Below the pieces are notes generated by a model, which saw only the letters and a program-made list of their open reading frames with translations, had not been told where the DNA came from and did not search any database. Of a DNA stretch of 64,000 bases, positions 9,760 to 53,934 are shown piece after piece. Every line of letters begins with the position of its first letter. Positions within the stretch are counted from its first letter, which is position 1. The position numbers were made by a program, and so were the translations under genes. This DNA comes from Psammoneis japonica (Eukaryota), in the NCBI GenBank assembly GCA_008632985.1, contig QPGO01000106.1:62001-126000 (forward strand), given 5' to 3'.

Positions 9760-10029
9760 ATTGCTGTGTTATTATTTCAACCACGAGTAGATAAGCAACC
9801 AACTTTTAGCAGCAACAGCAACAACCGACAACAAGAAGCGAGAGGAGTCGTTATTTTGTGGACGTTCAACGTGATGGCCGTGATGGATGGCTGACGCGGT
9901 CATTCGGCGGCAAGTTTGCGCGCGAAAAAATGTGTCAAAAATCTGACGTCACTGCCAGATCGGCCGTGTCAAGTTTTTTGGTCGCGGATGATCTTTTGTG
10001 TCGTGCTTCAACTATGGAAAGCCCGCTTG

Positions 10030-11760: not shown

Positions 11761-12169
11761 TAGAATGTCTCTAACAATTTTGATTGTTCGGAGCAGTTTG
11801 TCTCATGCCTTGGATGCTTAATTGAAAAGTCTTGTGACATTTGTCAATGCTGCAATGACCTGCTGGTGGGTCATCCCCCACAATTTCAATTGTTTTCTCT
11901 GCTCTCACACATTGTTTCGCATTTTGCGCTTCGCATTTGCACCAACAATCAAGAATGCAATGGTTGGAGGCGACACACAAAAAACAAAACGATTGAGCAT
12001 GCTCTTTTTTAAAGATCGAAAACTCTTGCTTGGTGTGGTCCTGTCCACGTCATTTTCTCAGGGCCATGTTTTTCGAGGAAATGGCGCAAGTCCAAAAAAC
12101 GAGGGTGGTGTCCACAACATAGATGCAAACGCTGCCCGCAACGTCTTGTCGCGAAAAACAGAGCTCACA

Positions 12170-22500: not shown

Positions 22501-23860
22501 ATCTCACCAGATTGTGTGGTGTTGGTTGTGAGCAATTGTTTGATGGATTGTGCTTGTTTGGTTGTTCAACACCATGCCGCAGCAGCAGAGCTTTTGCCAG
22601 CTAGAGAGTTTCTGACACAGCTGCTCCCACATCACTCGCGCCATGCTCATTGTGTCACCTCTCATCTTGAACTTCATTCTGACCAAGCTCACACTCATGA
22701 ACATTCTCCTGTGCTTCTTCTGATGCAACAACTGTCTTTGGTGGCTTGCCCTGCTGGCAGAGTGTTTTGCATGCAGTTGTCAACAGCTGGTCTGTGAGGG
22801 ATCACATGCACTGTCAAACACATCTGCGCTCATTGCAACACACAGAAAGGCATGATCAAAGCAGCCTGCAATGGCAAACAAGTGTTGAACAAAACATTCT
22901 GCTCAAGTGACCATGTCCTGCCAAGATCCAATGACTTCAACCTTCTGAGAACATCAGAAAACAAGTTGGAGAAAAGCAATCTCAAGCGGAAATCAGATGG
23001 GTCAAAGGCCATCAGCCAAGACAGCAAACTGGCCGAAACAAAAACCGGGCAGGTGAGCAAGACCAAACATTCAAATGGATGACTTGGTGAAAGCCAAATG
23101 GCAACAAGGAGTTGCCAGGTTGGCTCCTGCTCGATGGCAGTTCTCCAGCACAGAAGATGAAATGTGCGTGGCACGTGTGGGGGTGAGTGCAAAATCTCCA
23201 CCAAACTTCTTTCAGAGCACCTTCTCAAGAACCACACCTGCAGCACCAAACTGGCCCACCATTGGGTGCACCAAAAGCAATGATTCTCATGTGATGGCTT
23301 CCACAAAGTGGGCTGAGAAGTGACAGACAAGGCGGTGGATCAACCAGGACCTGAGCAACACAGGTGGCTTGCCAAGCATGTGACAGGCATCTGCAGAGAG
23401 TGGGCGGGTGGCTCCAACACCACGGGAGACACAGGACCATTCACACTGCCCACACTGCAAGGAGGATGATGAGGATGCTCACCATGCACTGGTGTGCCCT
23501 GAAGCTGCCAGCCACAAAACAAACTGCTGCGCAAATGGGTCTCAGCAAGGCTGCCAGTCACGGAACCAACGACCACTGAGGTGACGATTTCCCATCTCAG
23601 CATCCACCACAGAGGATGAGACAAGCACACCTGAGGACTCTGCCTCCAACTCAAAACAGCTGTGCCAGATTTCAGGTTTTGGACAACCAAAGGCTTTGCT
23701 CGGCAGTGCAGCATCATCCCATGCGAGGGCCCCGCCACGGCAGGCGGACAACTGATGGCGATGCTCCTCGACTCCATGTTGAGTTTGCCTTGTTCAAACA
23801 AATTTCCCTTTTCGGCGCCGGTCTGGAGCATCCTCTCCGGAGTCTTGCACCCAGCCGGCT
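22500..23860. other. TpA-depleted block of unidentified origin
   Basis: Composition only; no recognisable motif. Confidence 0.6.
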
Positions 23861-24027
23861 AAAAGCCCGTAGAGGGCGCAGGCACTTACTAATGATCGTT
23901 GAGTTGATTGATTGTAGTTGGCGTCGTCAGAGAGCACCCAGTTCTACAGCACTTACTTTCATACACACACACACTAATTCTTTTTTCCATGCTACTACAA
24001 AAAGTAATCTCCTACTTAAACTTCTTA

Positions 24028-29699: not shown

Positions 29700-31650
29700 G
29701 TGTAGATCGTCGGCTGGACTCTCTCTTCAAACAAGCCTTGTTGGCTTTATTTGTTGACAAGGCATGCACAACGGTCAATGGCACACAACATTAGGGCCCT
29801 GCATCATGCATCATGCTGTAAGACACCCAAGACACAAGCATCAGTGATCAGTCCCGCCTGCTTCAAACACTCGGGACTCAACCAGGGTTTCGCTTGGCGC
29901 CGCACACAACTGGTGTTTGCGCTTGTTTGACATGCAGGTGGTGCACTTTGTTCATCACCACATGCCGCCAACATTTGACTGAGTGGCACCACCACCAAAG
30001 CAATGATGGTGCATGATGAACAAAGCACAAGAGCTGGTGCACAAAAGCCACCAACCACCTTGCATCTCATTGGACAAGTGCCAAATCATTCTGTCCTCTC
30101 TGAGGCAGGTGCGCTTCAAAAAAAAATGCAGCACATGTTTCTCTCTAAAGCAACAAATCATGTGTTCTCTGTGCGATGCTATGAGAGATGGAGTTGGTTG
30201 CTTCACACTGCGTGCCATGGCATTTGCCGTTGCCAACCTCCTGTCAACATCACTGCTTGTGTGATTTTTTTGGGTGCTTGTTGGTTTGACCCACAATCTG
30301 CTTGACCAAGGCAGCTCAAGAACCTGAGTGCTCCCTTTTTTGTGCAGCAGGTGCAAGCACAAGCTGGTGAGCTGACAGCTCTGTCACACCAAAAAAAAAA
30401 GAGCTCTGCTGTCTTGCAGCAGCATGTGTTGTTCTCTCTTTCTGCAAGGCAAGATCCAGCGCAAGCAAATTGGGGAGCCAGACATTTGTGCACCTGTCTA
30501 AGTCAAGAGTGCTGGCACAAATGCAGCACAAAATCATGTGTCCCACAATGAGCAAAACATGTGTTTGTGGAGCAAAAGCACACTGCCAGACAGATGTTCA
30601 CAAGGGTCGTGACATCAGCCTCACGGCTGCATCTCAAATCAGCTTGGCTCATTCACAGATGAAAACAACTCTCACCATCAAAAGACAGTGCAAGTGCATG
30701 GTCAATTGTTGACATCATCATTGGCACAATTTTTAGGGTGCTTGCTTTTGTGACAAAGGAAACCCAATTGCTTCAAAATCAGGCAGAAGCAAAGGCAGGA
30801 AATTGCCAGCCATTGTCATCCACTGGGGGGCGGCAACACACTGGTCAAGAACCTCCACACATGAGCAACAAAGATGACCATGACAAAGAAATTGAGCAAG
30901 GCAATGAAACAAAAGCTCAGCACAGCTCGATTGTGACAGAGAGGAGTGGGGGCAGCAAGTGTGAGCATCAAATTATGCTGCATGACAGCGAAGGCTGGTT
31001 GAAGGCATTTGCACTCAACAGGGGTGGCACCTGCTGGCACAAACTTGCATTCCAGCCCTGGATGGGGCTGTGTGTGACATGTTGGCAGGCCTGCCAAGGA
31101 ATTCTGCATGTGAGCTCCACAGCAAAATTTTGGCCAATGAAAAGATTGTGTGTTCCAGCTCCAGGCAGGACCTTGTTGCACTGATGTGGACATTTGTGAT
31201 GATTTGTTGTTGCCCATCCCCTCAAATCATTGGCCCCATGACAACCACAAGGTTTTGTTTCTTTTGCAACCACTGCAACAACACGAGCTCTCTTGACCCT
31301 AAACTGACCTGAAAGGGCATCAACAATGCACCACAGATTTGTTGTGCATTTCCTTGTGTGTCTTCCAGCACTCAGATTCACAACTTTGGCCACAGCAGCC
31401 CAGTTGCAAGAACAATGACCATTGGCCCAACCCATCTTACCCCCCATTTTTGTCATGGCATGGTCAAACCCAGAAAGACTCTTGCGACCACAGTGTTGCA
31501 AATCGTGTGATTGTCAAAACCTCTTCTTGCCAATGGCGAGGCGCGCGGCTGAAAACACAAGCGCTGCCAGCTGGAGAGATTCATTCAATGTTTCATGTCA
31601 AGGTCGAATGGAAAAAAGACGTTGCCAACAAACGAGCGAACGAGTTGAGA
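29700..31650. other. TpA-depleted block of unidentified origin
   Basis: Composition only. Confidence 0.6.
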
Positions 31651-31721
31651 TCTTCTTGCTCTAACTAACTTGGTGGCTCCGAGCGTCATCCAGTGCGACT
31701 CCGGAACAAAGACAGGAACAG

Positions 31722-33065
31722 TTAATGGACACTAGAGTCATTGCAAAAGAATTCAGCTACACCCGCTTTTGAATTCGCGACAGGGATGCCAATGTGCTCT
31801 CCCTTCTTGCCCAGCTTACAGTCTTTCTTGTGCTTGCTCCAGTAAGACTTTACATGGTCCTGGCAACAAAATGCGACCTGGCGACACCCCGCACAAAACT
31901 TGAGGTTCTCATTAGACCCGCACACTGGGCATGAGCAATGACGCTTGTGCTGCTGCCAATGAACGCATTGATGTCGCGGTGAGCAACATGCCACCTTTCC
32001 ACAGGAACAGAGCCTCAGATTTTTGTCCGAGAAACAAACAGGACATGTTGTGCCTCTGCTTGTTGCTTTCCTCTGGATTGACGCTACTCTAGAAACAATG
32101 GACCAAATCTCATCATCCGCAATCTCGTTTTGCAATTTTGTGATTGTGAGTGGCAAGGCATTTTGCCATGACGCAACTTGTTCCATCGCTTCCATACCTT
32201 TTGCCTCAAACAGTTCAGTCTGCTGCTGTAAGATGATGCTTCGTCAAGGAGAGTGGTAGCTGCTGCGGTTTTAGGGCTTGGCATCTCCACAAAAAACGTG
32301 GTCCCTTCTGAGCTTTTTATGCCAGCAAGTTCCAGCTCTGTACACCTTCTGAAGGACTCGACAGCCATGTCTTTCTCTTCCAACAGGCTAGCTGAATTGT
32401 ATCTCTGTATGTGATAACGGCATTCTCTCAGGCGGAACCTCTTCTTTTGCTCTTGATCAATCTTGAAAAGAGGATTCTGAAAGACCAAGACTCGGTAGCA
32501 CTCCATCACATCGGAAAGTAGGTTCGATACTGCCAAGCACTTTTCGCTTTTTCTTTTTAGAAAGTAGTGTTCAGCGAGTGAAGTGAGAGCAATCACTGCT
32601 CTCTCCACATTGGACGGGTTCTTATCGGCCTCGAGTGGATGAAAAATTTCCTCAAACCAAAAGTCACGATGCTCTTCGATATCACAACGAAGACGACGAC
32701 ATGCATCTATCTTTCTTTTGTATTGTGGTGGATATATCCCAGTAGTAGATCCTCCGGCTCCATAGGCCTCGTTCAAGTAGGGCAAGTCTATCTGTCCTTA
32801 GCCCTAGTTCCTCCCAATCTGCGGGTGTCATGTTCTCCCAATCGTACTCAAATGTGCGACGCACTCTTGTTCTTTTTGCTACATTACTGCCGGCACCTGC
32901 TGCTAAAGATTCTTTACATGGAGAAAAAGGGCTGGTTGGAGCAACAACATTAGTGCCGCTCTTCTTTGGTGCTGGCTTGGACGGCTGGGTATTATCATTT
33001 TTCTCCTCTCCGGAAGAGTCGTCGTAATCGAGCTTATTTGACTTTGAACAGTCAATTCCACTCAT
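31722..33065 (-). CDS. Protein with two C-terminal MYND zinc fingers; frameshifts near 32770 and 32200 (gene or young pseudogene)
   Basis: CPVC..LRLCSCGKVACCS..HQ..HW..HKRHC and CPVC..KFCAGCRQVAFCCQDH...W..HKKDC. Three overlapping ORFs. Confidence 0.75.
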
Positions 33066-33999: not shown

Positions 34000-36154
34000 T
34001 GGGTGAAGAAAACAATCACTCCTCACTGCTGTCTAAACAGCAGATGAGTCTCCATGCAGAGACTGTCACAGGAGCCAAAAGACTGTTGTTGTTGACATCG
34101 GCACTGCTGTTGTTGTTCTTGTGAGCCGGTGGCTTGAAAGCAAACTGCATCGCACGTCGTGCACGGAACTGAGAGCACACACAATTGTGTGTGACAAACT
34201 AAAATCTTGTTCAAATCCTGTCACTCCCCAGTTTGCTTGAGGGGTCAACAGCAACAGATTCAAGGTCAGATTGGTTGAAAGCCTTGGGATTGAAGTTCCA
34301 AAACATCAGAGGACAAAGAAGTTCCAGACTTGGGAGTGATCCCAATGCTTGCTGAGGATGTCAGCTGGGTTGCGGGAGCAATCGATGAAATGAAACTCAA
34401 GGAAACCGGAGGCAACCGCCTCACGCACATGATGGAATGAGAGGGCAGCATGTTGCTTGTGTAACTTGGAGTGTGGGATGGCAGCACTGTCCACAACTGA
34501 CTTGTTGTTCCCGACTGTGCAACATGTTTCATGCCTGGGGACGCCAAGGCAATGCAAAGTGATGCGCAGATCAATGATCTGCTCAATGCATGCCCTTGCA
34601 GCAACAAACTTGGATCCATGCGTGGCAGTCTCAGCTGTTGCTTGTTTCTTGGAGAACCAATCAGCCAGGAACTTGTTGAGGAAATGGTGGATGCCAGTGA
34701 CAGAGCGTCCAGTGAGCATGCAATGGAACAAGTTCTTGTCAACGCAGTGTGTCAGACGTGTTCCAGCTGCACGTGAACCAAATCGTGCACAAAAATGACA
34801 TTTGCACGATTTTTGCATGGTCCCCAACTTGCGATTGATCTTTCACCACCAAAAGCATGGATTTGTGCAAACACAAATGTTTTGCAACACCAACAAGACT
34901 CGTGTGAGTGTTGCAATGTCATTGTCATTGTGCACCATCTGTGTTTTTCATTGCGTTAAAAGATTCGTAACACAACGGATGATTTTCAGCAAAAATGTTG
35001 CCGTCATTTGGATGTCACTCAAATGTGTCTTTCTGCAATGCCACTTGGCAGGTTTTCCACCCACAAAGAAATTTCAGCACAAATCTGCTGATGCACAATC
35101 AGCGCCAAGTCCACTGAGGAAGTTTGTGATGTGTGTCCCATGAGGACTTGAGTGCCCCTCAAAAAGCTGTCCAAATGTTCACACTCTAGAGAAGCCCACA
35201 AAAGTCAATCCATCCAAGTGTTTTTTGTGAAAATGCCACACACACTAAAAGACACATAAATTGCACTCAAAATTGATTGTCGTTTTGTGCGTCACCTGGG
35301 GCTGGAGCACGTCGTCATGGTGATGAACTTGCCAAGTGGCTTGGGCACATCTTGTGGGAGCAGCTCTTCTGCCTCCCCACACACAGATTGGGCCCAGTCA
35401 CAAATGGGCTTGGGAAGGTCCGAACAGCTGGGCTTCTCCGTGTGCACTTGGAGGGTGCCATGATGCATCTTGGAGAGGAATCCGCAGATTCATTTGGCAC
35501 GGTCTAGGTGGCCTCACTTGGCGGGGTGCTGTGTGGAAGCCAGACTGGGACATGACAGCCGCAGCAATGTCAATGCAACCAAAAGATGCAGCCCATTGCA
35601 GGGAACCAATCAAGGATTGAAATTGGTGGATGCCCTCTGGTTTGAGCAATTCGGAGGTGTCGAGCTCAGGGTCGTCTCCCTTGTCAAGGGGTGAAAGCAC
35701 ATCAGTGTGCGGGGCTTCTCCCCAAAGAGGCATGCGCAGTTGTCAGCCATGCGCTCAATGCACTTTTGCAAGGAGCAAGGCACAGGGTGCCATCTGGATC
35801 ATGGGTGAAGTTGCAACCAAGATCAAATTCCAATGGTCCAGCGCCCTTGAGCTTGAACTTGCATTTCTCCATGAGAGTGTCTGCAAAAGCCTGGGGGTCC
35901 TTCACTGCACAGGAATGGTGACCACCATTGGGTGGAAGAAAACAATGACTCCTTGCTGCTGTCTGAGTGGCAGATGAGTCTCCGTGCAGAGACCATCACA
36001 GGAGCTGAAAGACTGGTGTCATTGATGTCGGTGCTGCTGTTGTTTTGTTCTTGTGAGCCGGTGGCTTGAAAGCAAGCTGCATCACACATTGTGCATGGAA
36101 CTGAGAGCACACAAAATTGTGTGTGACAAACTAAAATCTTGTTCAAATCCTGTC
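34000..36154 (-). mobile_element. Internally deleted, hypermutated Ty1/Copia (diatom CoDi-like) element
   Basis: RT remnants (FKLKGAGPLEFDLGCNF, PLDKGDDPELDTSE..QSLIGSLQW) and RNase H (TGRSVTG..DWFSKKQATAETATHGSKFVAAR..NPADILSKHW). ~220-bp LTR-like direct repeats at ~34000-34224 and ~35930-36154. Confidence 0.88.
34755..35313. mobile_element. MITE related to family A (same TIR, different interior), eroded, nested in the copia
   Basis: GACGTGTTCCAG...CTGGAGCACGTC flanked by a GTCA direct repeat. Removal restores the copia frame KFITMTHCVDKNL. Confidence 0.82.
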
Positions 36155-39588: not shown

Positions 39589-40025
39589 CGCTGTCGTAGA
39601 GAGAGAGAGTTGGACGACGATGGATAGTCTACCTCCTGTACAGTAGATACGATTCGACATTTACATCTAGCTCTACTACTAGCTCTACTACTGCTCTACT
39701 CTAGAGAGTAGCATTGAGTAAAGGATCATGCTCATTTTACTTCTATTCATGATGTTGTTTGCCGTGGTTGTTGCCGTCGGGGTCTCCGATGAGCTATGGT
39801 TAGGTGTGCTATTCTAGTTTTCGGGACCACTCATATGGATGTACTCATGAATGAATAGAGTATTGAAGATCGTATCCTGTTGCGACGGACGCCATGACGA
39901 TGATCCTTCAAAGCCACAACGCTGACTGCGCTTTTTAGAGTGAACGGTGTTGGCGACCGTCAGATATCTCCTAATAGGAGCGACTGACAAGAAGAAGTAT
40001 AGGAGTATACCGTATATCAAGTAAT

Positions 40026-40877
40026 ATGCCGGCGTTCAACCAAGATTTCGACAAGAAAGATCGAGAATTTCTTTTGGAATGTGTTCAGGATGGAATTGGT
40101 TGCTTTGCTTGCGGCAAGAAAGAACCGAAAAAGACGTGTTCCAAATGCAAGATCGCCAGGTACTGCAACGTCGATTGTCAAAAGTTGGACTGGAAGGGGA
40201 TCAAAGGAGGACGACATGTTGCATCACACAAGGAAGTTTGTGCTCTCTGCTGTGACAACCGGACCAAAGCGTGCACGCAAATTGCGTTGCGGAGCGTTGA
40301 ATTCATCGACGATGAACTCTATGATAAAGCCATGGAAAGGCGCCAAGACTTGTGGATTGATGAACTCGAGCGATCCTGTTCAGACGTTCTTCTTGGATGC
40401 CAAACAGCAGCGATCTTTGATCTTCATCGGGTGCGCCTCAACGTGGCAGCTGCCTTTGCTGATGCCGACTTCAATCGAGTGACTGTCAACCACGTCATGA
40501 CCGAGGCTATTGATGACGGTGAGGATGCTAGGAAACGTCTCCATCCTCTGAGGGGCTCGGGAAAGCTCTCCGAGGCTGCCAAAGAAAAGGTTTTGACTCA
40601 CTGGGTCTACTTTGCAGCCCTGTTGCATGAAAGCGACATTCACGTAGCATCCGCATGCTTTGGTCGTGGACTCATGTACATTGCAGACGACAAGGACTTT
40701 CAACGCCAAGTCGAACAGGCCAACGGGGGACGCCGCATCATGTGGATGCCAGACATGGGGCATGCTGCAAGTGATTGTGAGGCCGCTCTGATGAATGCGG
40801 CGTTTCCACAACAATTGTCCTGGCATGTTTTTTGTTTGGAAAACTGCTGCCGGGGCACTCCTCTGTTCATCGTTTGA
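40026..40877 (+). CDS. MYND zinc finger protein (3' end partly eroded)
   Basis: CFACGK..CSKCKIARYCNVDCQKLDW...HKEVC. Confidence 0.8.
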   Translation: MPAFNQDFDKKDREFLLECVQDGIGCFACGKKEPKKTCSKCKIARYCNVDCQKLDWKGIKGGRHVASHKEVCALCCDNRTKACTQIALRSVEFIDDELYDKAMERRQDLWIDELERSCSDVLLGCQTAAIFDLHRVRLNVAAAFADADFNRVTVNHVMTEAIDDGEDARKRLHPLRGSGKLSEAAKEKVLTHWVYFAALLHESDIHVASACFGRGLMYIADDKDFQRQVEQANGGRRIMWMPDMGHAASDCEAALMNAAFPQQLSWHVFCLENCCRGTPLFIV

Positions 40878-42169
40878 AGTTGTGAGGTGGCCGCCCTGAG
40901 TCGTCCGCTGTGTGTCTCATTTCTTTGGCGAATCTCACATCATTGCAAATGCAATGTTTTTCAATCGTTCAATGGACTCATAAAGGCGCGTCTGCATTCA
41001 ACTCTCTTGTCTTCTACCTGACTGGTGCGGGCCAAAGAACACCCATGGATCGAAGGAGAATTGACACAAAAGCAGCAACAATGTAAACACTGCGAGCAAA
41101 AGGATCAAATGCCGTCAAAAGCATCCCCCCAAAATGACAAAAAGATGGCTCAATTCACTGCTCCAAACACAAACACTGCAGCACCCCCGCGGAGCAGCAC
41201 CCGAAAAGTTTGGTGGATGAGCAGTGGATGTGTGGGACCAGGGATCCATTGATGTTGAAAGGAGACATTGCGATTTCAATGTGACTTGCTCTCAATGTTG
41301 CCATGCACTCAGAATGGCACACAATTGGCAGTGGCAAGAGGCCTTGATGACTGCACAGCAGTTGTGCGCTGGCTGTGGAGAACAAAATGTGCCTTGCTCA
41401 ACTGTCAGTGCTGGCAAGGTGTTGCCACTTGAGCCATTGTTTTCAGTGCCATCAGAGCAGATGCCAAGGTGGCAGACTGCTTGTGGACTGTGCCAGCTGT
41501 GCCATCCATCATTGTTGTCCACTGGCTTTGAAACCACCTGTGGGTTTGTGGGGTGGAAGGAGAGAAAGCAGCTGAGAGGCAGCATGTTTGGTCAAAGCAA
41601 ATTTGACATGAGCAGAAAAAAATGGTTGGCCTGTCTCAAAGGCATTTTTGTCTGGCCTTGCTTGAGAAAGCAGAGCTGTGCACATGTGGCATCAAGCACA
41701 GACATTCAGCTGAGTGCCAGGCTGCTTCAAACTTGCTCTCTTCTCAGAGCTCTTGATGTGAAGAAACAAATTGCTGGCCTGATCACAGTGCAGGTTGCAA
41801 TCTGGCTGCAATCAAATCAACTGCATCTGGGCCAATGTCTGCTGGCTGGCTGGGTGCAGATTGCAGGTCTGGACAAGACCAATGAAATGGTGCAATTGCC
41901 CGCCAACTGTGCAGCCTTGAGGGGGCAAGTCAGAGGGCTGGCAGTGACTGCAAAATTGAGGAGTGAGCTGTTTTGTTTGCAGGGGCCCAAGTTGTTGGCA
42001 TCTTCCATTGCCCTGTTGAGGAGCAAAGTGTGGCAAGAGGCTCTCACCTCTCCCTGCCTCTGGCTCTCTGCCACCCAGCTTGGGAGCAGGCAAGAGCACT
42101 TGCCACCACCACCACCAGCATGTGGCAGTCTCCAACCCAGTTGAAGTTTGGAAAGTCTCTTGCTGGTTG

Positions 42170-43600
42170 CAAGCCAACAAATGGAATGGACAAGACAACA
42201 ACAAGAGCAGACGAGTGGTTTTTTGTTGTTGACGATGATGGACTCTTTGAGTCAAAACGTGGCTGCACACTGGAGGAACAAGCCCAGAGAGTGGCGGGGG
42301 TCCAAAGATGAGGGTGGGGTGATGACAAGGCATGTTGCAGGCAAAGAGAATGACAACAATGACGTGAAACCACCAGCAATGTTGTGCTTTCAATTTAGCC
42401 AAACATGTGCCACCAATGGTGTTTGGCATGAGTTGAATGATCAAAAATGATGCAACACACCCCAGCGACACCCAAGCTTGCCTCAGCATGGAGGACTGTG
42501 CTCAGAGGCAATGGAGGAGTTTGGGTGCAGCGGCAATCCAAGAAGAAGAGTGCTGAAAATGCTTTCAACAGCCACACAGGAATTTTCTCCAAACACAAGC
42601 AAGAAGAAGAAAAACAGAAAGAAGAACAAGACTGCCCTGTTCTTGACCAGCAGAGGTGCTGGAGCAAAAGATCTTGGCAGCCCCTGCAGCTGGAGAGGAA
42701 GTTTGTTTGAGGCCCTGACGGGTTGTGTTTTCTGAGTGTCAGTCAAACCAAAACAGCAGCACACATCCTGCACAGCAGACATTTGCTTCCAAAGTGCCTG
42801 GCTGGAGAAGAGAGACCACATGTGCGCCATGCTTTCCCCCCTGTTTTGTGGATCATGCTTTTGTGCACGTAGATGCATCATGCACAACGCAGATTTGTGA
42901 ATGTTCTCAAACAGGCCAATGGGAGATGCCGCATCATGTGGATGCCAGGCATGGGGCACATGATGTGGTGAGTGATTGTGCTGCTGCTGCAACGAATGCG
43001 GCATTTCCGCAACTGTCCTGAGGGCTTTGGTGCTTTTGGCAGTGCCGCAGCTGTGAAAGAGCTGTGGCAGCACGTCTCCTCTGTGCATGTGCAGTTTGAA
43101 GCAAGAGTCAGCCACACTGATTCATCCTGTGTGTCTCATTCCTTTCATGAATCTAACATCATTGCAAATGTCTTTCTTGTTTTTCACTTGTTCAAGCACT
43201 CATGAATTCACGCTCACTTGCCAGGCACTCTCTGGTCTTCTGCCTGACTGGTGTTGTGCACCAAAGAACATCATCCATGGACAGAATGAGAATCAATGTA
43301 AAAGCAGCATGAAGAATGAAGACTTGGCAAGCAAGGGATCAGGTGCCAATTCAGCAGCACAGCAAGCAGTCAAGAGCACCCTCAAAATTCAGCACACTGC
43401 AGCCCCCCACCAAGGAGCACCCAAAACGTTTGGCAGCATGGGCAGGACCAGGGATCCTTCAGTGCTGAGAGGAGGTGTTGCAATTTCAGTGTGGCCTGCT
43501 GTTCTGTTGCCACATGCTCAGAATGACATGCAAGCTGCACTGGCTTTGGAAGAAATGTGCCTTCTCTGCCAGCAAGCAAGGTCTTCTTTGAACCATCATC
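42170..43600 (+). pseudogene. Hypermutated, internally deleted duplicate of ~39110-41400 (RNF10-like 3' end, MYND 3' end and downstream DNA)
   Basis: MEWTR..EQTSG, LCFQFSQ.CATNGVW.ELN and GCCGCATCATGTGGATGCCAG shared in the same order with the intact region. Confidence 0.85.
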
Positions 43601-44398
43601 ATCGGCATGGTCAATGCAAGCATCCAGGCACCAGCAGACTTCTCATGGATTGCATCAGTCACCAAAATTGCTGCTGTGTTTGCAAAACAGAGGGAGAAAG
43701 CACTGGTCAAAGCCCACCCTGGGGGTGAGAAGCAAATTCATGGGTGCCCAAAAGGTGGGGGGCGCATGCACGGGGAATGAAAACCAACAAAAAATGTTCT
43801 CAATTAAATCCCCTGGCAAAGATTGGGCCAGAGGTGGCAGAGATGGATGAAAGTGCAAAACATGCGCAGAAGCCATCGCACAGACAGGCTGCCATTGCGA
43901 CTCTCCTTGCAGCCATCGACCCCCAAATCACATGAGCCCTGAAAACGCCTGCGTGCAATTTCGTGCGCGCTGTGTTCGGTCTTTGTTGAGTCGCCAAAAT
44001 TGCGCAAAATCACTCGCTCCATGACACGGCGGCCGCAGGAGAAACATTTGCCACTCCTCCGACTCCTCTCTTTTCTTTCTTGCAATTCATCCCATGCAAC
44101 ACATTGAAAGCACCCTCCATTGCGGGCTCATTGTCTCCTCCAAAGGTCTGACATCAAAAGTGCATTTCTACAACCAACAAAGGCAGGTCCATTCTTGGGT
44201 TTTGCGTCAAAAACAATTTCTGCTGTCACCGCTGCCATCTCGTTGCCTCCTGTGATTGTGCCTCCTCAGTGTGTGCTCAACTTGTGGTTTGTTTGTGGCA
44301 CTGGTCAGTGGCCAAATCACCACTGCAGAGACAGCGCTCTCTTTTTTTTTTTTGGAAAGGTGACTTGAATTTCTGTCCCATTTGCTGCACAACAATGC

Positions 44399-46783
44399 AT
44401 GGGGCCGAAGCAATTTTGGGGCCCTGCCCTGGGGCTTTTTCAGAATGAGCCACATGAACGAGCTGACAAGTTCAAGGGAAAGCGCACTGGTGTTGATGTT
44501 TCCATTCTTCTGAACAAATGCAACAGCAGAGAAGAGACTCAGCTCGCCACCACTTGCATCCCGTGCCACCCCTCTCCTGAAACACTTGCAGAAATTCAGC
44601 AGACACATGGGCCATTGGAAAAAGCTGGCATCACACCCGTGTGCATTTTTGATGGTGTCGCCCCACCAGTTGAGAAAGAAGAAAAAGACAAACGTCTGCA
44701 TGACCGGGAGAAACACAAACAAATGTACGATGAAGCCGTTCAAGATTGCAAGGCTGCTGGATTTGTGTCGGACACCGAGTTTGAAGACGCTGTGAAAGCA
44801 CGCAAGAATTCAGCACATCCAACAGTGCTTGACCATGCGGCGGCAATAAAATGGATGAAGGACAGCAACATTGAATGCCATGGGTCTCCTTTTGAAGCAG
44901 ATTGCCAGCTGGTGAAACTTGAAAAGGATGGCATTGTGGACGGAATTGCGACAGAAGACGGCGATCTCGTTGTGCTGGAAGGCCGCCCTGTCCCATCCAA
45001 GCTGTCTCTCAAGGATGACAGTCCAAAGTTTAGAGTTTTTCTGAGAGATGAGTTCATCAGTGGACAAGATCCGCACCATTCGAAGCTTTCTGAATGTCCA
45101 GGATTGATGCTGGAGACATCCAATTTCCTCGGAAACGATTGCATGTCCAGAGTCTCCGGCAATGGCCCAGTCACTGCACTGGAGGATAAAGATCACCAGA
45201 AGCAGAAAAATGATGGCTCAATTGATGACTGTGCCAAAGCTCAGAACAAGTTTCAGTGGCTTGAGAACTGTGAGAAAGAGAAGAAAGATGAAATTCCGGA
45301 TGGTTGGGCGAAAAGGTTTGCAATGACGGCACGATTCCTGTGACACCCCCCTGCATTTGAAAAGTGCAAGGCTGCTGGACTTGTGTCTCTAGCTCCTCTG
45401 CATCCATTGCCAGCAGGTGTGTCAGATTGGGCAGAGCACATTGGTTTCAATCCGAGCGAACTTGCCGTTGTCGATGCAGGCGAGTGCAGCAAGCTCTACA
45501 ATCTCGAACTGTTGCCACTGAGTGGAAAACCACTGTCTGACTGCAAAGGGCCACATCACACACTCGCTGAAAATGGTGATGTTGCATCCGACTTTGTCTC
45601 ACCCACTTTTGCCAAATTGGATCTCCAAGCCGTCCCTGTCAGCACGCAGCCGACACGTTGCTTGAAGATGTGGCTGCCAAGTGGACATGTCATTCCAAGG
45701 GAGTCGGACGTTTGAGTTTGTTTGGCAATCAGGAAGCCTGTTGCTCCGCCAGGGATGCAGATCAAGCGTGGAAAATGCAACAGTTTCGAGGCACTGAATT
45801 GTCGACAAGCAGGGAATGAGTGTGACAACTGGAGTCGGAACCACATGAAGATTGCCAAGAGAGTTCGCAAAATTGCAGACGACATGTTGAACGAAAAACT
45901 GGGGTGCACTCTAAAAGGTACGACACGGCATGCATTGCGGCTGTTGAAGGACGGCAATTTAAATCCCAAGTCCATGAAGTGCCTGAACGTCCAATCGAAG
46001 TTGAATGGGGATTGGTGCGTCACACTGAGGTGCGACACGCGCAGCTCAGAACGAGGTGTCGTCCACTTGACAAGTGCTGTCTTTGAGGATGAACCAAATG
46101 GCGACTTCATTCTTGCTCCACTTTCTACCTGCAGCTGTGAGGACGGCAGTCTCTTCTGTTCACACCTGTTGGGACTGCTGTGTTTGATTGGTTTGGCGCA
46201 GTTAGAGCAGACGCGTTCCAGGTCTAGGTGGGACCTCGCACTGCTGAACTGTGACATCGATAGTTTTTTGAGTCTCGTCGTATGTCGCGCACGTAGATTT
46301 CTACGTGATTTTTTCGATATTTTGTGTCATTTTACGGTACACTTATTGAGCGATCCGTCCAACAACTTTTGACATTTTTTGTTACAGCGCGATTCTACAA
46401 TGTCTTAAGAATCGCGTAGGGCAGGCGAAGTTGCAAAACGTCGAGTGGTAAGAGGCATAATTGTACCACAAACTTGGCCGTTTATTTGATGTTGAAGACA
46501 AACATGTCCATTAATTAAATTCTCGTACTACGGAGCTCGCACGTAGAATTCTACGGGCCCAATGTCACACGGAGTCCCACCTAGGGCTGGAACGCGTCAG
46601 CAGTCTCAAGATGAGTTTGAGTTGTGTCACCCCATGTCGCCAGAGCCAGTCCAAGCTGTTCCAATGCTGATTGAGAATCTGGTTGTGAAGGACAGCTTCA
46701 AGAGAGCAATGGGCCAGAAAAGGCGACGAGGCGACGACGTTGCTAAAAAGGCAGCGAAACCAAATGAGGCGCAGACCAAGTGA
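44399..46783 (+). pseudogene. XPG/FEN1/Exo1-type nuclease fused to a SWIM zinc finger; two in-frame TGA stops and a MITE insertion
   Basis: MG...GVDVS, PVCIFDG, SPFEADCQL, TEDGDL, GNDC.SRVSGNGPVTA, then CSCEDGSLFCSHLLGLL. ORFs at 44399, 45383 and 45722 share one frame. Confidence 0.85.
46210..46598. mobile_element. MITE family A, un-eroded copy
   Basis: TIR GACGCGTTCCAG..CTAGGTGGGAC / GTCCCACCTAG..CTGGAACGCGTC, AGCA duplication. Removal restores the frame LEQSQDE. Confidence 0.92.
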
Positions 46784-46841
46784 CGAACTGTTGCACCTTG
46801 ACGTCTGCCGGAGCAGACCTTGCAATGAGCTGCATTGCATC

Positions 46842-49242
46842 TTAGTGTCTGCCATAGTTTTTCTTGTTTTGCCAGCAGCTGTCAGTGACGACAGACTCTC
46901 CGCCTGGCTTCCGGAATGGCAAATCAAGATTTGCAGCCACGTGTGCCCACGCATGAGCATGCGGTAAAATTGGCACCACACAACAAGGGACGACAGCTTT
47001 TACAATGTCCTCATCAGTGCATCGACTAAATGCAGTCTCCGCTGGAAACCTTGCATTGAACAGTGGGCGGTCTCGAGAAATGTGTTGCGCAGTTTTCCTG
47101 CAGCCTTTCGATTCACTGAGCTTTTCTGGAGTGTTGACGTCATTGAAGCAGGGATGGTCTCGCTCTGTTCCAGCAAACCCCTTGTCACCGATCACAGGAG
47201 TGCCATTTGAAATCTCAGCCAGTCGCAGCAGGATCTTTGGGACATTTTCCAATTTTGGCTTTTGCGGCAGACCGTCCATGCCACTGCCAAGCCACGCCAA
47301 AAGCTTTTGTCGTTCATTCGCCGTCACTAAAAGACAGTGCAAAAGCAAGCACTTTCTCAGCCTGCAAGCTTCGTATGATCGATGAAGCCGCTCTTGTCGT
47401 TCAAGCTGGATCAATTTCCGTTTTCCACTGTTGTTCACTCCTCCACGCAGGACTTTGTCGTTTTGCTCCTCCAAGTGCTCCGGTGTTGTCATGGGTTGTT
47501 TCTTTCGCCCCCCGGTCACCTTCTCCGCTTGTTTGAGCAGCTTGTGTTCTCTCCACCAATCAAGAGCTTCTGACATCAAGCCAGATTCAGTTTCCTCCTC
47601 CAGTGCCTCCTCCACAGGGGCCTTGTTGTCGCTCACCACTTCCTCAAGTCCCGATGCTGTGGCTGTGACTAGCGCATCATCAAAACCGCGTCTTCCCCGC
47701 CCAGCAGATTTTGGTCGATCATCTCCTCAAATTCTGATGCTGTGATGATGTCATCGAGGGCCGTGCAGAAATTTGGAGCCCCTCCTGGGTCGTCATCTTT
47801 GTTGGCAGCATCTTCCCACTCGGACACAGGTGCGTGTGCAATGCCAAGCGATCCCCACAATCGCAGCATGCTCTTCTCTGACGCTCTGGCTCCAAACAGC
47901 GGAGTGTGCTCAAATGTAGTCCCGCACAGCGTGGACCACATTGGGCAGCGCCCGCAGTCGCAATCATTCTTTGGGCTGCACTGCATTTGGTTGGCGGTTC
48001 CATCCTTTCGCTTGGACTCCATGTTTGCATCTCGACCATCAACGAGAATCGATGGCCCAACTCGTACACCGCCTGCATCCAAGTCAGGATGTTCTCGTCT
48101 GACAAAGCCCCCCCAGGTGATGTCAAGAATTGACAAATCTTCTCCAGCCTCTCCCCATCTTGGAGCCCACTCATGAAGCATTTGTCCCACTCGAACACGA
48201 TGTCGATTTATCGTGAGGCCTGTCACACCTTCGACCTCCTGATGGTGAAAAAACAGTCGACAAATCAAGCATTTCTCTAGCTCTGATGTCGGGGGCATGT
48301 CAATGACTCCGCCAACTTCAATTGGAGCCACGGGGCAAGGCACATCATCAGCATTGATCTCAGGAAAAAGGTCTTGAACATGCTGCTTCGTTTCCTCCCA
48401 TGAAACAAAACCATGCAACAAAGACGCCGCATTTGGATGGTTCGAATGCCACTCATCATCGAAAACAGTGAGACGAGACAACCCTCCAGAGCTTGCTAGA
48501 AAATCCTCAACTTGGTCCCAGGTCAAGTGGTGGTCTTTACGCTGTAAATCTTGAGAGCTTTCTTCCAACGACTTGTGCTTTTTTGACAAACGAGCATTCC
48601 TCTCCGTCAATGCCTTGTTCTTTCTCTTGAAGCTGTCAATTGCATCTTGACGATGCTGAGCTTCACGCCTTTGGACAGCTGACTTTCATCCCTGTCATGA
48701 ACCACATGCTGCAACTCTTCTTCACGTGGAGAGCCTTGTTGATGTTGATGAAGCTTGCTTGGCATGTCAGGTCGAGCAGACGTCAGCAAGTCGCACAACG
48801 ACCCAACTGTGCTCTTGTCAACATTCGGGGCATTCACGCACATGACAGGATTTTCAATCCGCCACCGCAAAGGCCTGGGTTTCCCCAGATCAGGGTTGTG
48901 TCTCATTTTTTTGTCGTTCTTGCACTCGCCATGCAAGCAATTCCACTTTTCTGCAACATCAGGAGCGATGGGTGTGGACCAGTTTTCATTGGCATGGTCA
49001 AGCATCTCGTGCATCTCTTTTTTCCAGTGATGTCTTGCCACCTGCAATCGAGTGCACCTGGCATCACCGGCAGGTGATGTTCTCCCACGTTTGCCACCTT
49101 TTTTCCTGTCGGAGTAACACTCTCTGATTGTCTCTCGGTCGCTCTTTGACACGTGAAGGTTGAGGAAGACGGCCTCAAGAAGATTGACTGCGTTGCAAGA
49201 ATCTTCATTGCAAGCCAGCCTCACAAAGTCACCCCCAAGCAT
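46842..49242 (-). pseudogene. DDE transposase of the PIF/Harbinger/ISL2EU (DDE_Tnp_4-like) group, fragmented
   Basis: ILVDG...CSPKN...TPLFGARASE...VIGDKGF...NTP...R.PAETAFSR follows the DG / YSxK / GGRxSD / DKGF / R..VE order of that family. Confidence 0.7.
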
Positions 49243-50545
49243 GTGATTGATTGATGTAAAATGTTTTCGACATTTGTCACACTCTTCCCAATTGCAGAGA
49301 CACCTGTCATTCCAAGTGACTCGAGGTTGTCACTTGATGAATCACGACTTGATGCAACGACGGGACTGATGCTTTTCGACCGTTCCATGACAACAACGCA
49401 AATTCTTGCACACCCAATCCTCCTGCAAGGTGTGCACATGGGCCAAGCAACACAATGGGCAAATGAGAGAAGGCAGCGAGTTAGCAGAAGCAACAGCAGA
49501 AATTGTTGTTGACCGGATGCCCAACAATGGACCCACCTGCTTGTGTCAGCGAAATGCACTTTGGGTGACAGACCGTGGATGGAGAGAAATGGTTGACAGT
49601 GCACAACACTCGTAAGGGTTTTCATGCATGAGACATGGGAAGGGGTTGCGCCGACCTGGTAGACACATGCACAGTTGTCAATGAACGGTTGCTCAAGCAA
49701 TCGGCCATTTTGGGATGATTTTCGAGATCCGACCCAGACCGAACATGGCGCGCACGATTTTTCTGCGGGGGTTTTGTGCTGGGTTTTCACCACTCATGGT
49801 TGCCAAGCCACTGGTGGCTTGATCACAACATGGTCTGCAGCCAAGGGCTGCAATAAAAAAACTGTGGCTGGGCAATTGTTTGGTTTGACATCTGGGTGCA
49901 GATTTGTGCTGGCCTGGGCAGCTGCTGGGCCAAAAAGAAAGACAGTGTGGCCAACAGCGACACCCGGCCAACTGTGTGGGGGCCATGAGGAGGCAGGTCA
50001 GAGGAGCTGTCAATGCAAGCTGTTGGTGCTCCCTCCCTCTGGCTCTGGCACCTTTGCTCATCCTGTTGAAGAGCAAAGCAACAAGCCAAGAAACAGACAC
50101 ACCAGCAAGAAGCGCTCCCGCCTCTTTCTCCTCTCCCTGTCTCTGCCCTGCCCCCGCCCCAGCAGCAGGGAGCATGTCTCAGCATGTGCATTTGGCCACT
50201 TGTTCCAGTCTAACACCCAATTAAAGCCCAGAGTCTCTTGCTCCAGCTAAAAACCGGCATTAGTTTCAAGGGCAATGCCACCAGGCCACATCGTTGCAGG
50301 TGCGATCATGTCGAGCTCTAAATGGGCGCTTTTTGTGCTGCTAAAAAACAGAGTCCAAAGTTACCAAGTTGTTGTGGTTGGCGATTTCGATTGGCGCTTG
50401 GTACACAGCGATGGGGGGTTGCACTTCCAAACTTCCAAAACAGAAAAGAGCGGAGCTTGTTTGATTGAATGCCTACAAGAGAAAGTCGGCGACGCCTGTT
50501 TGACTTGTGCTTTAGATCAAAGCGAACGTTAGAGGCAAGAACATT

Positions 50546-51082
50546 ATGCGCTCAAAGAATCATGCAACTTCTCAGTCTCGAAAGGGTTTGGCTGCATTTG
50601 CTGCGCGACAAGTACATGCTCCACTTGCTCATGCTTGGCAATGTCTTGTAGATGTCGATTCGTACCCATCCATGTGTTCCACTTGTACTGCGGTAGAGCG
50701 TCTGGATCGACATGATGCCATCAAGGTTGGATCACAGTGGCGAGAAACTCGACATTATGGACGACGGCTCTACAAAATTGTCGTGACGGCGACAGCTGTA
50801 CTGGAAGAACCAAGTGAGTCGGCGCTTGTCGTGACCACCACCGTCATGGGAGCCACCAGTACATCCACACAAACGGTACAAGCAATCGATGACCATACGT
50901 GCATGGTTACGTTATCCTATGCCATGGTGGCTAATCATGTTTGGTCCAAGATGTGGACCATGCTCTTTGGTTGGCAAATACGTCGACAGGCATCCGACGC
51001 TCTCGAGACGGAGCTCAACGACCTTGCCAAGGCAGTAGAAGACGCTTATGAAAGCGAGCTTCAAACTGATAATGGCGAGTAA
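50546..51082 (+). CDS. SRPBCC/START-like (polyketide cyclase-type) protein
   Basis: V.AP...AWQCLVDVDSYP..VGSQWRETR. Paralogue at 55884. Confidence 0.75.
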   Translation: MRSKNHATSQSRKGLAAFAARQVHAPLAHAWQCLVDVDSYPSMCSTCTAVERLDRHDAIKVGSQWRETRHYGRRLYKIVVTATAVLEEPSESALVVTTTVMGATSTSTQTVQAIDDHTCMVTLSYAMVANHVWSKMWTMLFGWQIRRQASDALETELNDLAKAVEDAYESELQTDNGE

Positions 51083-51188
51083 CAACAACAAAAAAGAGAA
51101 GTCCTATCATTTTATATACAAAATCAGAAAAAATACAAAATTCGAGCAATCATCGAGTATGAAGCAACAACGCAATACGGAACAAGAG

Positions 51189-53934
51189 TCAATTTTCATT
51201 TCCATTCATGCCCATGATCTCCTGAAACTCGGTCCAATCAACACCTCCATCGCGATTAACATCCAAGGAAGCTACAATTCTCGAAATCACGTCCTCCGGT
51301 TCGCCTGCCGAACGCAAAACGACTCGGATTTCATGGGGGTCCAACACACCATTTCCTTCCAGGTCAATGGCATTGAAAATCTCGCGAAGCTTGCCCTTGT
51401 CCGATGTCGCTGTGCGGTGACTATCAAAGCGATTCAAAATGTGAGATTTGAATCGATTACGAAGGTAACTGTCTTGTAGGCCCAATCCGCTGTTGCTGCT
51501 CTCGCCACGTTTGCTCATCATGAGGGCTCGGAATTCATCCCAACGAATCACACCGGTACCATCCAGGTCGGCGCATTCAAATATCTGACCAATATGCTTG
51601 TCAGAAATACCCATGTCTCCAAGTACCGTTGTGACCTCTTCCAGGTCCAGTACACCGTTTTGTTTGAGATCCAACGCACGAAACATGGCCTCCAACTCGT
51701 GTTCTGTAGTAGTATCACTGCTTGTGGTGGAAAACTTTTTCAAAATTTCGGCACGAAACTTGTGTTGCCAATAGGCTTGTAATTCTGCATGGGTCTTGGA
51801 CATGGTTTTCCACGACGCCGTCAATCCTTGTACCCATGGGTGTCGTCGAAAATCGTCCGACGTCATGCGCTTGTGGGGATCGGGATGCATTAATTGTTTC
51901 ATTAAATCAATGCACGAATCACTCAAACCGTCAATGCGTTCGTCAAAGACCAACTGGTCCATGAGAGAATTGGCCTTTTGTTGTGGTTCTACTTCTTCGC
52001 CATTGTCCTTGCTTTCGATGCTGCTCTTTAACTTCATTAAATCGTGAGCAATATCCTCGTCAGGTTTATCTGCGTACTTGTCAAACGGGTGACTATGTAC
52101 GAGTACAGTATACAGAAAGGAGAAGCGTCGTAAGTTAGGCATACGCCATGAGCTCAAGCACTAATGAAATCAGAATTGGGACACAAATGCTACTTACGAG
52201 CCAGTCAGCAAAAGATACACAATCACTCCTGCTGCCCACATGTCTGCAGCGGGCGTCGGCTTGGCGCCCTTGGCAAAGAGTTCTGGTGCCCAATAGGCAA
52301 TGGTCCCCGAGGCGTTTTCGTCTTCCACTCTTTGTTTGAGAATCGATTCACCATACACTTTGAGTTTCGGAGGAACGTTAACATCGCCACGTTTGGATGC
52401 TCCGTAGTCTTTCAACAACTTGATTATTGCCGCCGAGTTCTTTTTGGCACTCTTGGCATCGTCCAGTGGGCGATTCCCCCACCGGTCTTCTACATTGACA
52501 TTGGCTCCCGCCTCGCAGAGTAGCTTGACAACCGCCAATCGCCCTTCGCCCGCCGCAAGATGACATGCTGTTCGTCGATCATAATCGCCTTGATTTATAT
52601 CAATGTTTCCAAATTGCAACAAGGCTTGAACTACCTTGACATCTCCCAGAGACGCGGCATTGATGAATTTTTCAATCGCCAAGGCATCATTACCAAATGT
52701 GGCACCGTGTTGACCGAGAAATTCAAGCACGTCGGCATGTCCGTGTCGGTGTGCATCATCCAACGGACTGCCACCCCATCGATCGACGCGGTTAATGCGA
52801 GCACCGCGTTGTACGAGAAATCGACAAATGTCCAAATGCTACATGTAAACGAGTTTGTATGGATAGAGCGAAAAAAGTGTGAATAGCGCGAATCGTGAGT
52901 CTTCTAAAGCTCGCACAAAACACACGGACAAGGCCGCAAACTCGACCAATCCACAATATACTACGTACACCTTCCGATGCTGCGATGTGAAGAGGAGTCC
53001 GCTTGTCATAGTCCCTAAAGTTGACTAAATTCGGTCGTTCCTGCAAGATGCGTTGCAATTCAAACTGATTTCCCAGAGCCACCTGATGAAGAACACTACA
53101 ACCCATGGCAAATTCTTGAGCCGGCAAGTGCAAATCCTTTTTTGCCAAATCGTGTGTACACGCACATCCGAAATCCACCACCTTTAATGCCATGCTATTG
53201 TTATTGTTGTTTTCGTCCATACCGGATGATGATGCAAACGATGTGGCCAGCATTAAGTTTTCAGGCTTGAGGTCTGCATGAATGTATCCGGACGAATGAA
53301 CAAAGCAAAGAGCTTCGGCAAACTGCCGCATAAAGGATGCCGCGACTGCCTCCGAGTAGGGTCCATTTTGAATCAAATGTTCCAATAGCTCCCCACCTTG
53401 TACAAGTTCCATGGCGAGATAGTAATTCTTGTCGTCACGATGCAAATCATACAACTTGACAACATGATTGTGTGGACCCGACGGTGGTTTGGAAAGTAGT
53501 TGGAGTGCCGCCACTTCCCGTTCAAAGTCCGTCTGACCGGTATACTCGCGGGGCATAGTTTTCAAGGCTACCGCAAGACCATCGTTCTTGCGACGGGCTT
53601 GATAGACCATGCCGTACGCGCCTTCACCCAACACTTGTTCAATGTCGTACACATCCTTGAGTTGAAACCGTTTGGGAGGTGATGATTCGCAGAGACAGGA
53701 ATTGCTGTAATGGAGGGGAGCTATCGAGTGTTTGTTTTCTTCAAAGGCCTTGTAGGCCACAGAAGCAGCACAGGCTCCACCCACGGCCGCCACGAGTCTG
53801 ACAGTATTACTCTTGTTCCTTGTGATGCATGTACTTGCAAGGCGACGACCACTCGAAGAAAAAGTCGCTTGTGCTCGGCTGATTTGCCGACCAAGAGGGA
53901 CAACACGAGAACACCAGCCTGTTTGTTGAAACAT
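51189..53934 (-). CDS. Ca2+-dependent (CDPK-like) Ser/Thr kinase with an ankyrin-repeat insertion and four EF-hands; introns ~52845-52968 and ~52095-52197
   Basis: LGEGAYG, VALK, HADLKPEN, DFG, then ankyrin repeats (DYDKRTPLHIAASEG, DRWG..PLDDA), then GTIAYWAPE, DMWAAGVI. EF-hands DLKQNGVLD, DLDGTGVI, DLEGNGVLD, DVNRDGGVD. Confidence 0.9.

Follow-up and report, generated by a model that had tools for sequence, protein, structure and literature searches.

A probable two-gene DNA transposon of Psammoneis japonica with an EXO1-like nuclease and an unusual transposase related to DDE_Tnp_4

Transposons of the PHIS type are known with different second genes. The partner of the transposase is a Myb/SANT protein in Harbinger and NuwaI and a YqaJ protein in ISL2EU, and Spy has none (PMC4482050; PMC4122938; these and the other papers cited below were available as excerpts, to which our statements on them refer). 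ISL2EU elements combine a DDE transposase of the IS5/Harbinger kind with a 5′-3′ exonuclease as second open reading frame (ORF), and PIF/Harbinger elements are believed to require their second protein for transposition (PMC4482050; PMC4122938). The target-site duplications (TSDs) of PHIS elements are absent, 2 bp (AT) or 3 bp (TWA, ANT, CWG, TNA) long, and a range of 0–4 bp is given in PMC10045372. The same source describes AcademX elements, which also encode a nuclease, linked there to TSD length. Here we analyze a 64,000-nt stretch of Psammoneis japonica DNA (assembly GCA_008632985.1, contig QPGO01000106.1, positions 62,001–126,000), called the window in the following. Positions 43931–49798 of the window (5,868 bp) are probably a single, damaged copy of a cut-and-paste DNA transposon of the autonomous type with two genes, in which a gene for a DDE-type transposase faces a gene for an EXO1-like nuclease.

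The element is bounded by degenerate inverted-repeat arms of about 330 bp each. The left arm (43931–44262, plus strand), which also forms the 5′ region of the nuclease gene, is complementary to the right arm (49458–49798, minus strand), the 5′ region of the transposase gene, with 65–78% identity. The arms were recognized by inverted-repeat detection, self-blastn and a gapped arm alignment. A self-comparison of the region from 42.5 to 51.5 kb gave two arm pairs, 44131–44257/49462–49588 (127 nt, 72%) and 43961–44000/49718–49757 (40 nt, 78%), and self-blastn aligned the arms over 134 nt with 73% identity (E 1e-13). In the gapped alignment the arms have CATGAG..TGAAAAC in common at their outer ends, from 43931 and from 49798 inward, and the unit was therefore set to these positions, close to the bounds 43935–49780 proposed in an earlier first-pass annotation of the DNA. 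Both genes are transcribed inward from the arms and are convergent, with stop codons 58 bp apart; they are the only two long ORFs between the repeats. The arrangement of inverted repeats around two convergent genes, already suggested by that annotation, was thus recovered, with both arm pairs found and both genes identified by homology. Its remark that the arms differ by TG versus CA holds for five columns, but these are only five among the 107 mismatches (48 transitions and 59 transversions) in 309 aligned columns. The best-matching candidate for a TSD at the flanks, the pair CCAAATCA / CCAAGCCA, was doubtful with its 4-nt offset and was rejected.

The gene on the plus strand is predicted from its sequence to encode an EXO1-like 5′ nuclease (5′-3′ exonuclease and 5′-flap endonuclease) of the XPG/Rad2 family. 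Its main part (44399–46208) starts with an ATG at 44399, contains the nuclease core up to about 45400 and a CxCx6CxH finger at 46130–46165, and is interrupted by a nested miniature inverted-repeat transposable element (MITE). The 3′ end of the gene follows behind the MITE (46602–46783, plus strand) and contains a conserved ..MLIEN.. motif, a basic tail and the stop codon TGA at 46781–83; tblastn placed the homology behind the MITE (46604–46738) in the same frame as 44399–46165. The frame from 44369 to 46372 is open apart from in-frame TGA codons at 45341–43 and 45713–15. It scored 34 bits for XPG_I (cut-off 24.9) and 28.9 bits for XPG_N (cut-off 22) in Pfam, so that the nuclease assignment of the first-pass annotation stands. 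The acidic residues of GVDVS, IFDG, PFEADCQ, TEDGD and LGNDC are all kept; the window protein departs from the conserved GNDY by a Y to C exchange, and the other conserved positions of the acidic motifs and of the helix-3-turn-helix (H3TH) segment are kept.

A search of 1.84 billion representative proteins yielded 590 relatives of the nuclease at E ≤ 1e-3, 34 of them at E ≤ 1e-30. The best relative, P0002 (681 amino acids, 38% identity, E 3.5e-110), begins at the window sequence MGPKQFW encoded from the ATG at 44399, and full-length family members comprise 637–813 amino acids. Fourteen members, 21–58% identical to the first, keep the active site throughout; XPG_I was found in all 14, XPG_N in 13 and SWIM in five (best E 9.6e-4). 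The family profile matched human EXO1 over profile positions 4–345 with E 1.4e-33, which makes EXO1 the best solved relative (PDB 3qea, 5uzv), nearer than Rad2, XPG and FEN1 with weaker values of 1e-31 to 1e-26. The acidic columns D/D/E/D/D/D/D and the GxDY..G.G segment are aligned between the family and EXO1, and the alignment extends past the nuclease core into the ..F..A...F....VF....L.PLN stretch of EXO1. The GNDx..GNG segment, previously described as H3TH-like, indeed aligns with GcDY..GiG of EXO1. The C-terminal half of the nuclease (about 330 amino acids), which includes the finger and the basic tail, is specific to the family, and a protein-atlas search with residues 320–681 of P0002 gave no usable match. 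Within the family the C-x-C-x6-C-x-H motif shows little or no variation.

The transposase gene lies on the minus strand (46842–49388), with a candidate ATG at 49388 and a stop codon at 46842–44, and would encode a protein of about 850 amino acids. Homology is distributed over three frames (49323–48778, 48682–47687 and 47681–46848), with frame breaks near 49328, 48686 and 47682. The middle piece matched the intact 775-residue protein P0153 with 40% identity (E 3e-63). A search with P0153 retrieved 20 family members, including THAOC_25893 of Thalassiosira oceanica, and 16 of these proteins (590–1086 amino acids) were aligned. Invariant in this alignment are VDGxD, a K, an acidic residue, GDKGF, a P and R(3)E. 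The proteins are composed of an N-terminal Cys/His motif, a coiled coil, a helix-turn-helix (HTH) and the catalytic core. In the window gene, the CxCx4C..H motif is located at 49279–49302, the HTH-like stretch at 48248–48283, the first catalytic aspartate (D1, LVDGRD) at 48029–48046, the second (D2, GDKGF) at 47175–47192 and R(3)E at 47028–47051, all on the minus strand. Nearly all transposases of the family begin with a CxCx4-5C..H motif, for which Pfam gave no match. The C-termini of P0157, P0164, P0166 and P0167 are rich in Cys and His and look like PHD fingers, and Pfam listed PHD for three of the 16 transposases without naming them here (best E 3.3e-4).

The association of the two genes is not restricted to the window. 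When JGI metagenomes were scanned with the alignment of the transposases, five loci (L001–L005) were obtained, two of which have no usable flank, since L001 ends inside the transposase gene and L005 about 50 nt past it. In all three loci that reach past the 3′ end of the transposase gene, a convergent nuclease gene was present. L003 has intact ORFs of 1249 and 675 amino acids with stop codons 39 bp apart, L004 has intact ORFs of 885 and 732 amino acids with stop codons 123 bp apart, and in L002 the C-terminal tail of the nuclease (37 amino acids, 59% identity, E 7.5e-7) is found at the contig end. In L003 and L004, too, these are the only two long ORFs between the repeats. Identities to the window proteins are 25.8–34.7% for the nuclease and 28–42% for the transposase, and both window genes are nearer to L003 than to L004. 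Since the same convergent pair recurs at only 25–42% protein identity, the linkage of the genes is conserved. The expectation that the two ORFs should co-occur elsewhere was therefore confirmed wherever the flank was long enough.

At the ends of L004, a 36-nt imperfect pair of terminal inverted repeats (TIRs) was found at 9597 and 14982, and directly outside of it the 7-bp direct repeat GGATACC at 9590–9596 and 14983–14989. The ends of the L003 contig (1–2159 and 8031–10190) form a 2,159-nt inverted duplicate with 100% identity. The duplicate includes an ERG4/ERG24 sterol reductase gene. We rejected these ends as 2-kb TIRs; most simply, the assembler folded back through TIRs that are identical, and such perfect TIRs would imply a young, possibly active element. 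The short motif CATGCG..CTGAG..CCCGCC is common to the upstream regions of L001 and L002 and to the window arms, in an alignment too noisy to define termini.

Sequencing reads give a further view of the element. They were represented by read-derived contigs of one DNA sample, the only sample listed for the locus (3,308 records over a 7.7-kb stretch), and contain more than one copy of the element. The summed contig depth, which is not a measure of copy number, exceeded that of the flanks in no bins other than those between 43771 and 49938. The same sample contains a relative about 91–93% identical to the window copy: its contigs join 44808 to 46018, which corresponds to a loss of 1,209 internal nt from the nuclease gene. 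This relative, a probable non-autonomous derivative, lacks the MITE, and some of its contigs have about half the flank depth. Other contigs join 46205 to 46599 and skip 393 nt, as expected for a copy without the MITE.

The nuclease gene of the window copy is truly broken, and no functional nuclease can be produced from it any longer. A read-derived contig with no differences covers 44849–45709 and includes the first TGA (45341–43), which is therefore real; the second TGA (45713–15) falls between the listed contig pieces. For the transposase gene the contigs give another picture, with one extra base at all three frame breaks or next to them: at 49328 in 63.3 of 63.3 depth, at 47682 in the full depth of 78.2 (C 50.8, T 27.4) and at 48686 in 36.8 of 100. 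Because of these extra bases, at least two of the breaks are probably assembly errors or differences between copies. When the three insertions were applied, a single open frame of 984 codons resulted, and the organism may thus have an intact or almost intact transposase. Single extra bases were also seen in contigs at 47616 and 48961. The window assembly therefore probably contains 1-nt deletions, and frameshifts in other genes of this assembly call for caution.

The relationship of the transposase to known families was addressed at the level of profiles. In a protein atlas, the ten best named clusters all carried DDE_Tnp_4 or HTH_Tnp_4 (score 0.93, 193 shared features), and HTH_Tnp_4 was found in seven of the 16 relatives in single-sequence Pfam scans (best E 4e-4). 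For hhalign, the references were PF13359 ORFs of Actinomycetota, with matches in 14 of 301 genomes, so that the reference set is bacterial only; 18 of 29 extracted ORFs were aligned, the other 11 being short, without a start or near-duplicates. The whole transposase alignment matched these 18 ORFs with E 1.3e-3 over 128 columns. After removal of an insertion (P0153 residues 431–639, with borders chosen by us), the match improved to E 3.5e-6 and a probability of 87.6% over 217 columns, with D1, D2 and E aligned. The two halves of the core, compared separately, gave E values of 2e-4 and 5e-4 at collinear template positions, and the best control (reversed alignment and 20 column shuffles) reached 0.19. 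PHIS membership has been assigned at e < 1e-4 over the catalytic region (PMC4482050), and the value obtained without the insertion lies below this limit.

For PHIS transposases the signature D(19-29)K(29)D(18-40)D(11-19)P(18-28)R(3)E has been published (PMC4122938). Our family follows D(22)K(30)E(234-327)D(10)P(32-36)R(3)E, with the residues in the same order, an E instead of D at the third position and three of the six gaps outside the published ranges. Of 17 sequences, 15 have the complete set of seven residues; of the other two, one has A for P and one is truncated. The long gap reflects a conserved insertion of some 200–290 residues between the first and the second catalytic Asp. The transposase core is thus homologous to DDE_Tnp_4 but unusual in being split by a conserved insertion. 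The DDE_Tnp_4-like label of the first-pass annotation is thus retained at the level of the protein family, by hhalign and the atlas.

Several observations weigh against this assignment or against a transposon with a working nuclease partner. None of the three transposase pieces of the window reached the Pfam threshold of DDE_Tnp_4 (PF13359) or matched any other transposase family in Pfam. P0153 had no DDE_Tnp_4 match in Pfam at E ≤ 10, the L003 transposase scored 13.3 bits against a cut-off of 24.8, and DDE_Tnp_4 was found in only one of the 16 relatives (E 5.4e-4). NCBIfam gave nothing but coiled-coil noise for the 16 transposases, and a PDB sequence search with the transposase profile found nothing better than E 0.068. 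The best hhalign value depends on removal of the insertion. For the nuclease, the SWIM assignment (PF04434) made earlier is supported by the conserved CxC..CxH motif but not by the Pfam score, which is 15.3 bits in the window against a cut-off of 19.6 and below threshold in every member. No TSD was legible at 43931/49798 when the flanks were compared at several offsets, the termini given here are approximate, and the sole candidate TSD, that of L004, comes from one locus and is longer than the PHIS range. The evidence for several copies derives entirely from the contigs of one sample.

Some of these points could also indicate that the element is a two-gene transposon outside PHIS, forming a superfamily of its own that shares only the ancient IS5-type fold and has a TSD of about 7 bp. 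This would agree with the lack of a Pfam-level transposase match, with the insertion of 234–327 residues inside the core, with a P-to-R gap of 32–36 compared to the published 18–28, and with the absence of a Myb/SANT or YqaJ partner. It would also explain GGATACC beside both ends of L004, since two random 15-mers have a 7-mer in common with a probability of only about 0.75%; if a TSD, this repeat would be longer than any reported for PHIS. On the other hand, the repeat was seen at one locus only, for which there is no empty site, and the 21 kb of L004 contain GGATACC six times. Moreover, the hhalign match runs in collinear order through HTH, D1, K, the acidic residue, D2 and R(3)E, two of the spacings (D to K, and within R(3)E) agree with the PHIS signature, and the atlas neighbours are all DDE_Tnp_4. 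We therefore regard a separate superfamily as unlikely, although worth consideration.

XPG-family nucleases are normal cellular genes and one source labels a relative as '5′-3′ exonuclease', so the locus might be an ordinary or domesticated host gene pair, or a host EXO1 paralogue, that lies beside a transposase and is not mobile. This is very improbable. The same convergent order recurs at 25–42% identity beside different neighbours, namely ERG4/ERG24 in L003, ORFs for a PC-esterase and a glycosyltransferase in L004 and kinase genes in the window; the pair is enclosed by inverted repeats, the window copy is broken, and an internally deleted relative is present in the reads. Even less probable is that the pair forms part of some larger mobile or viral unit, such as a giant-virus insert or a Polinton-like element, since the location of the window copy in a repeat-rich block (about 40 to 50 kb) and the frequency of XPG/FEN-type and YqaJ-type nucleases in large DNA viruses, as seen from paper titles, are outweighed by the inverted repeats enclosing only two genes, by a depth back at flank level outside the element and by the finding of neither gene family in 2.9 million viral contigs. 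Prokaryote genome contigs contained no relative of the transposase.

A two-gene transposon related to PHIS thus remains the preferred reading, and ISL2EU is among the described systems closest to it. Both have two genes, combining a DDE transposase of the IS5/Harbinger kind with a 5′-3′ exonuclease, an HTH ahead of the DDE core and TIRs of variable length (PMC4482050; PMC4122938). The ISL2EU partner is, however, YqaJ, whereas the second ORF in the window, L003 and L004 carries XPG_N and XPG_I, in the window with a SWIM-like finger; ISL2EU has an AT dinucleotide as TSD, which was not seen at the window element, and its core does not have the insertion of 234–327 residues. A THAP domain of the ISL2EU type was not among the 25 Pfam families listed out of 71 for the 16 transposases. 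PIF/Harbinger shares a related transposase core (the atlas neighbours include 'ALP1-like') and likewise has two ORFs, but its partner is a Myb/SANT DNA-binding protein without nuclease and its TSD is TWA (PMC4482050; PMC4122938), neither of which was seen in the window element. Pfam gave no Myb/SANT match in the ORFs of the window, L003 and L004.

Like the window element, AcademX is a eukaryotic DNA transposon with its own nuclease, but it has a transposase of a different superfamily. In AcademX an XPG-type nuclease forms one protein with the transposase; that of the window is encoded by a separate convergent gene next to a transposase that aligns with DDE_Tnp_4. Cellular EXO1 shares the nuclease core and the acidic residues with the transposon protein, which differs from it by its family-specific C-terminal half and its location inside inverted repeats.

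We could not find the pairing of such a transposase with an XPG-type nuclease in full-text searches of the literature, with Repbase lying outside this comparison. For Thalassiosira pseudonana, Harbinger-like elements have been reported, and the excerpt of that report does not mention a nuclease partner of this kind (PMC2806351). The pairing thus appears to be undescribed in print, as a variant of the known two-gene elements of the PHIS type. This agrees with the earlier suggestion of a distinct lineage with a 5′ flap/exonuclease as accessory nuclease, which gains support from the co-occurrence in three of three loci and from the homology to DDE_Tnp_4; the family may nevertheless be catalogued in Repbase.

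To our knowledge, it is not settled how transposases of the Harbinger/ISL2EU type handle the second strand, and the role of the obligatory partners is only partly understood. We infer that the nuclease has a role in transposition, because its active site is kept in 14 members, the order of the genes does not vary and an unrelated 5′-3′ exonuclease occupies the same place in ISL2EU (PMC4482050). The transposase would bind the repeat ends via its HTH, perhaps also via the N-terminal Cys/His motif, and catalyze the DDE strand cuts and strand transfer. The nuclease might act as a dedicated co-factor. At the transposon ends it might cleave or resect the strands that are not transferred (5′ strands) or, alternatively, it might process flaps and gaps at the donor or target site. 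Its zinc finger could tether it to DNA or to the transposase and provide specificity together with the family-specific middle region, and the basic tail is a possible nuclear import signal. The unrelated YqaJ enzyme of ISL2EU presumably performs this strand processing as well. An EXO1-like partner here, from a well-understood class of 5′ flap/5′-3′ exonucleases, and an unrelated enzyme of the same polarity in ISL2EU would thus suggest 5′-strand processing as a concrete and testable step.

In Tn7, the 3′ cuts are the work of a DDE enzyme and the 5′ cuts that of an unrelated second nuclease, and the element thereby exits through double-strand breaks. The window pair could tentatively be seen as a eukaryotic counterpart of TnsA/TnsB, that is, as an obligate two-nuclease machine with a DDE enzyme that releases the 3′ ends and a structure-specific nuclease for cutting or resecting the 5′ strands; we consider this possible rather than probable. 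Tn7 serves only as a working analogy, being bacterial and having in TnsA a restriction-enzyme-like fold, and no homology is claimed. If true, the independent recruitment of YqaJ by ISL2EU, of a nuclease by AcademX and of an EXO1-like protein by the present family would indicate that transposition of this kind depends in general on a 5′ nuclease of the element's own. The intact elements in L003 and L004 make excision assays feasible. The family could be widespread in marine protists, possibly mis-annotated as 'exonuclease' host genes.

The MITE that interrupts the 3′ end of the nuclease gene (46209–46599, 391 bp) was absent from the first-pass annotation. It is flanked by GC/GC, has TIRs of 26–28 nt and is 81% identical to window positions 495–885. 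The TIRs begin with TGACGCGTTCCAG, the flanking duplications of the two copies are 2 bp long (GC and TT), and the MITE ends are unlike the ends of the host element. In the MITE bins the summed depth was 136,000–230,000 compared to about 60 in the flanks, and the MITE family is therefore very abundant.

The base composition of the element is strongly skewed. The observed/expected ratio was 0.16 for TpA, 0.70 for CpG and 1.46–1.51 for TpG and CpA, whereas TpA was 0.46–0.84 in the relatives of the element, like in their own flanks, and window genes showed 0.5–0.65 for TpA and about 1 for CpG. Among 36 conserved positions at which the window departs from the relatives, 23 could be polarised: nine changes were from TpA to TpG/CpA (including four Tyr-to-Cys exchanges), five from CpG to TpG/CpA, five were other transitions and four transversions. 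The decay of the window copy is thus a host-specific loss of CpG and TpA to TpG/CpA. The two MITE copies differ at 18 TA/(TG or CA) columns compared to eight CG/(TG or CA) columns, so that a back-correction of TG/CA to CG, as proposed in the first-pass annotation, would be wrong at many sites. From the sequence, an A:T to G:C process at TpA seems to be targeted to repeats here, in addition to CpG decay and in the opposite direction to fungal repeat-induced point mutation. We know of no description of such a process.

Repeat-like blocks of the window (1–2000, 10001–12000, 22001–24000, 30001–32000, 34001–36000 and 40001–50000) have observed/expected ratios of 0.04–0.14 for TpA, 0.26–0.61 for CpG and 1.45–1.87 for TpG/CpA. 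As TAA and TAG are almost absent from TpA-poor blocks, the length of an ORF is no evidence of a gene there, and the true frames of the element were identified by homology instead of length. The 9 kb from 42500 to 51500 contain 108 frames of 50 amino acids or more, with long open frames in all six frames, among them one of 256 amino acids antisense to the nuclease gene (45556–46326, minus strand).

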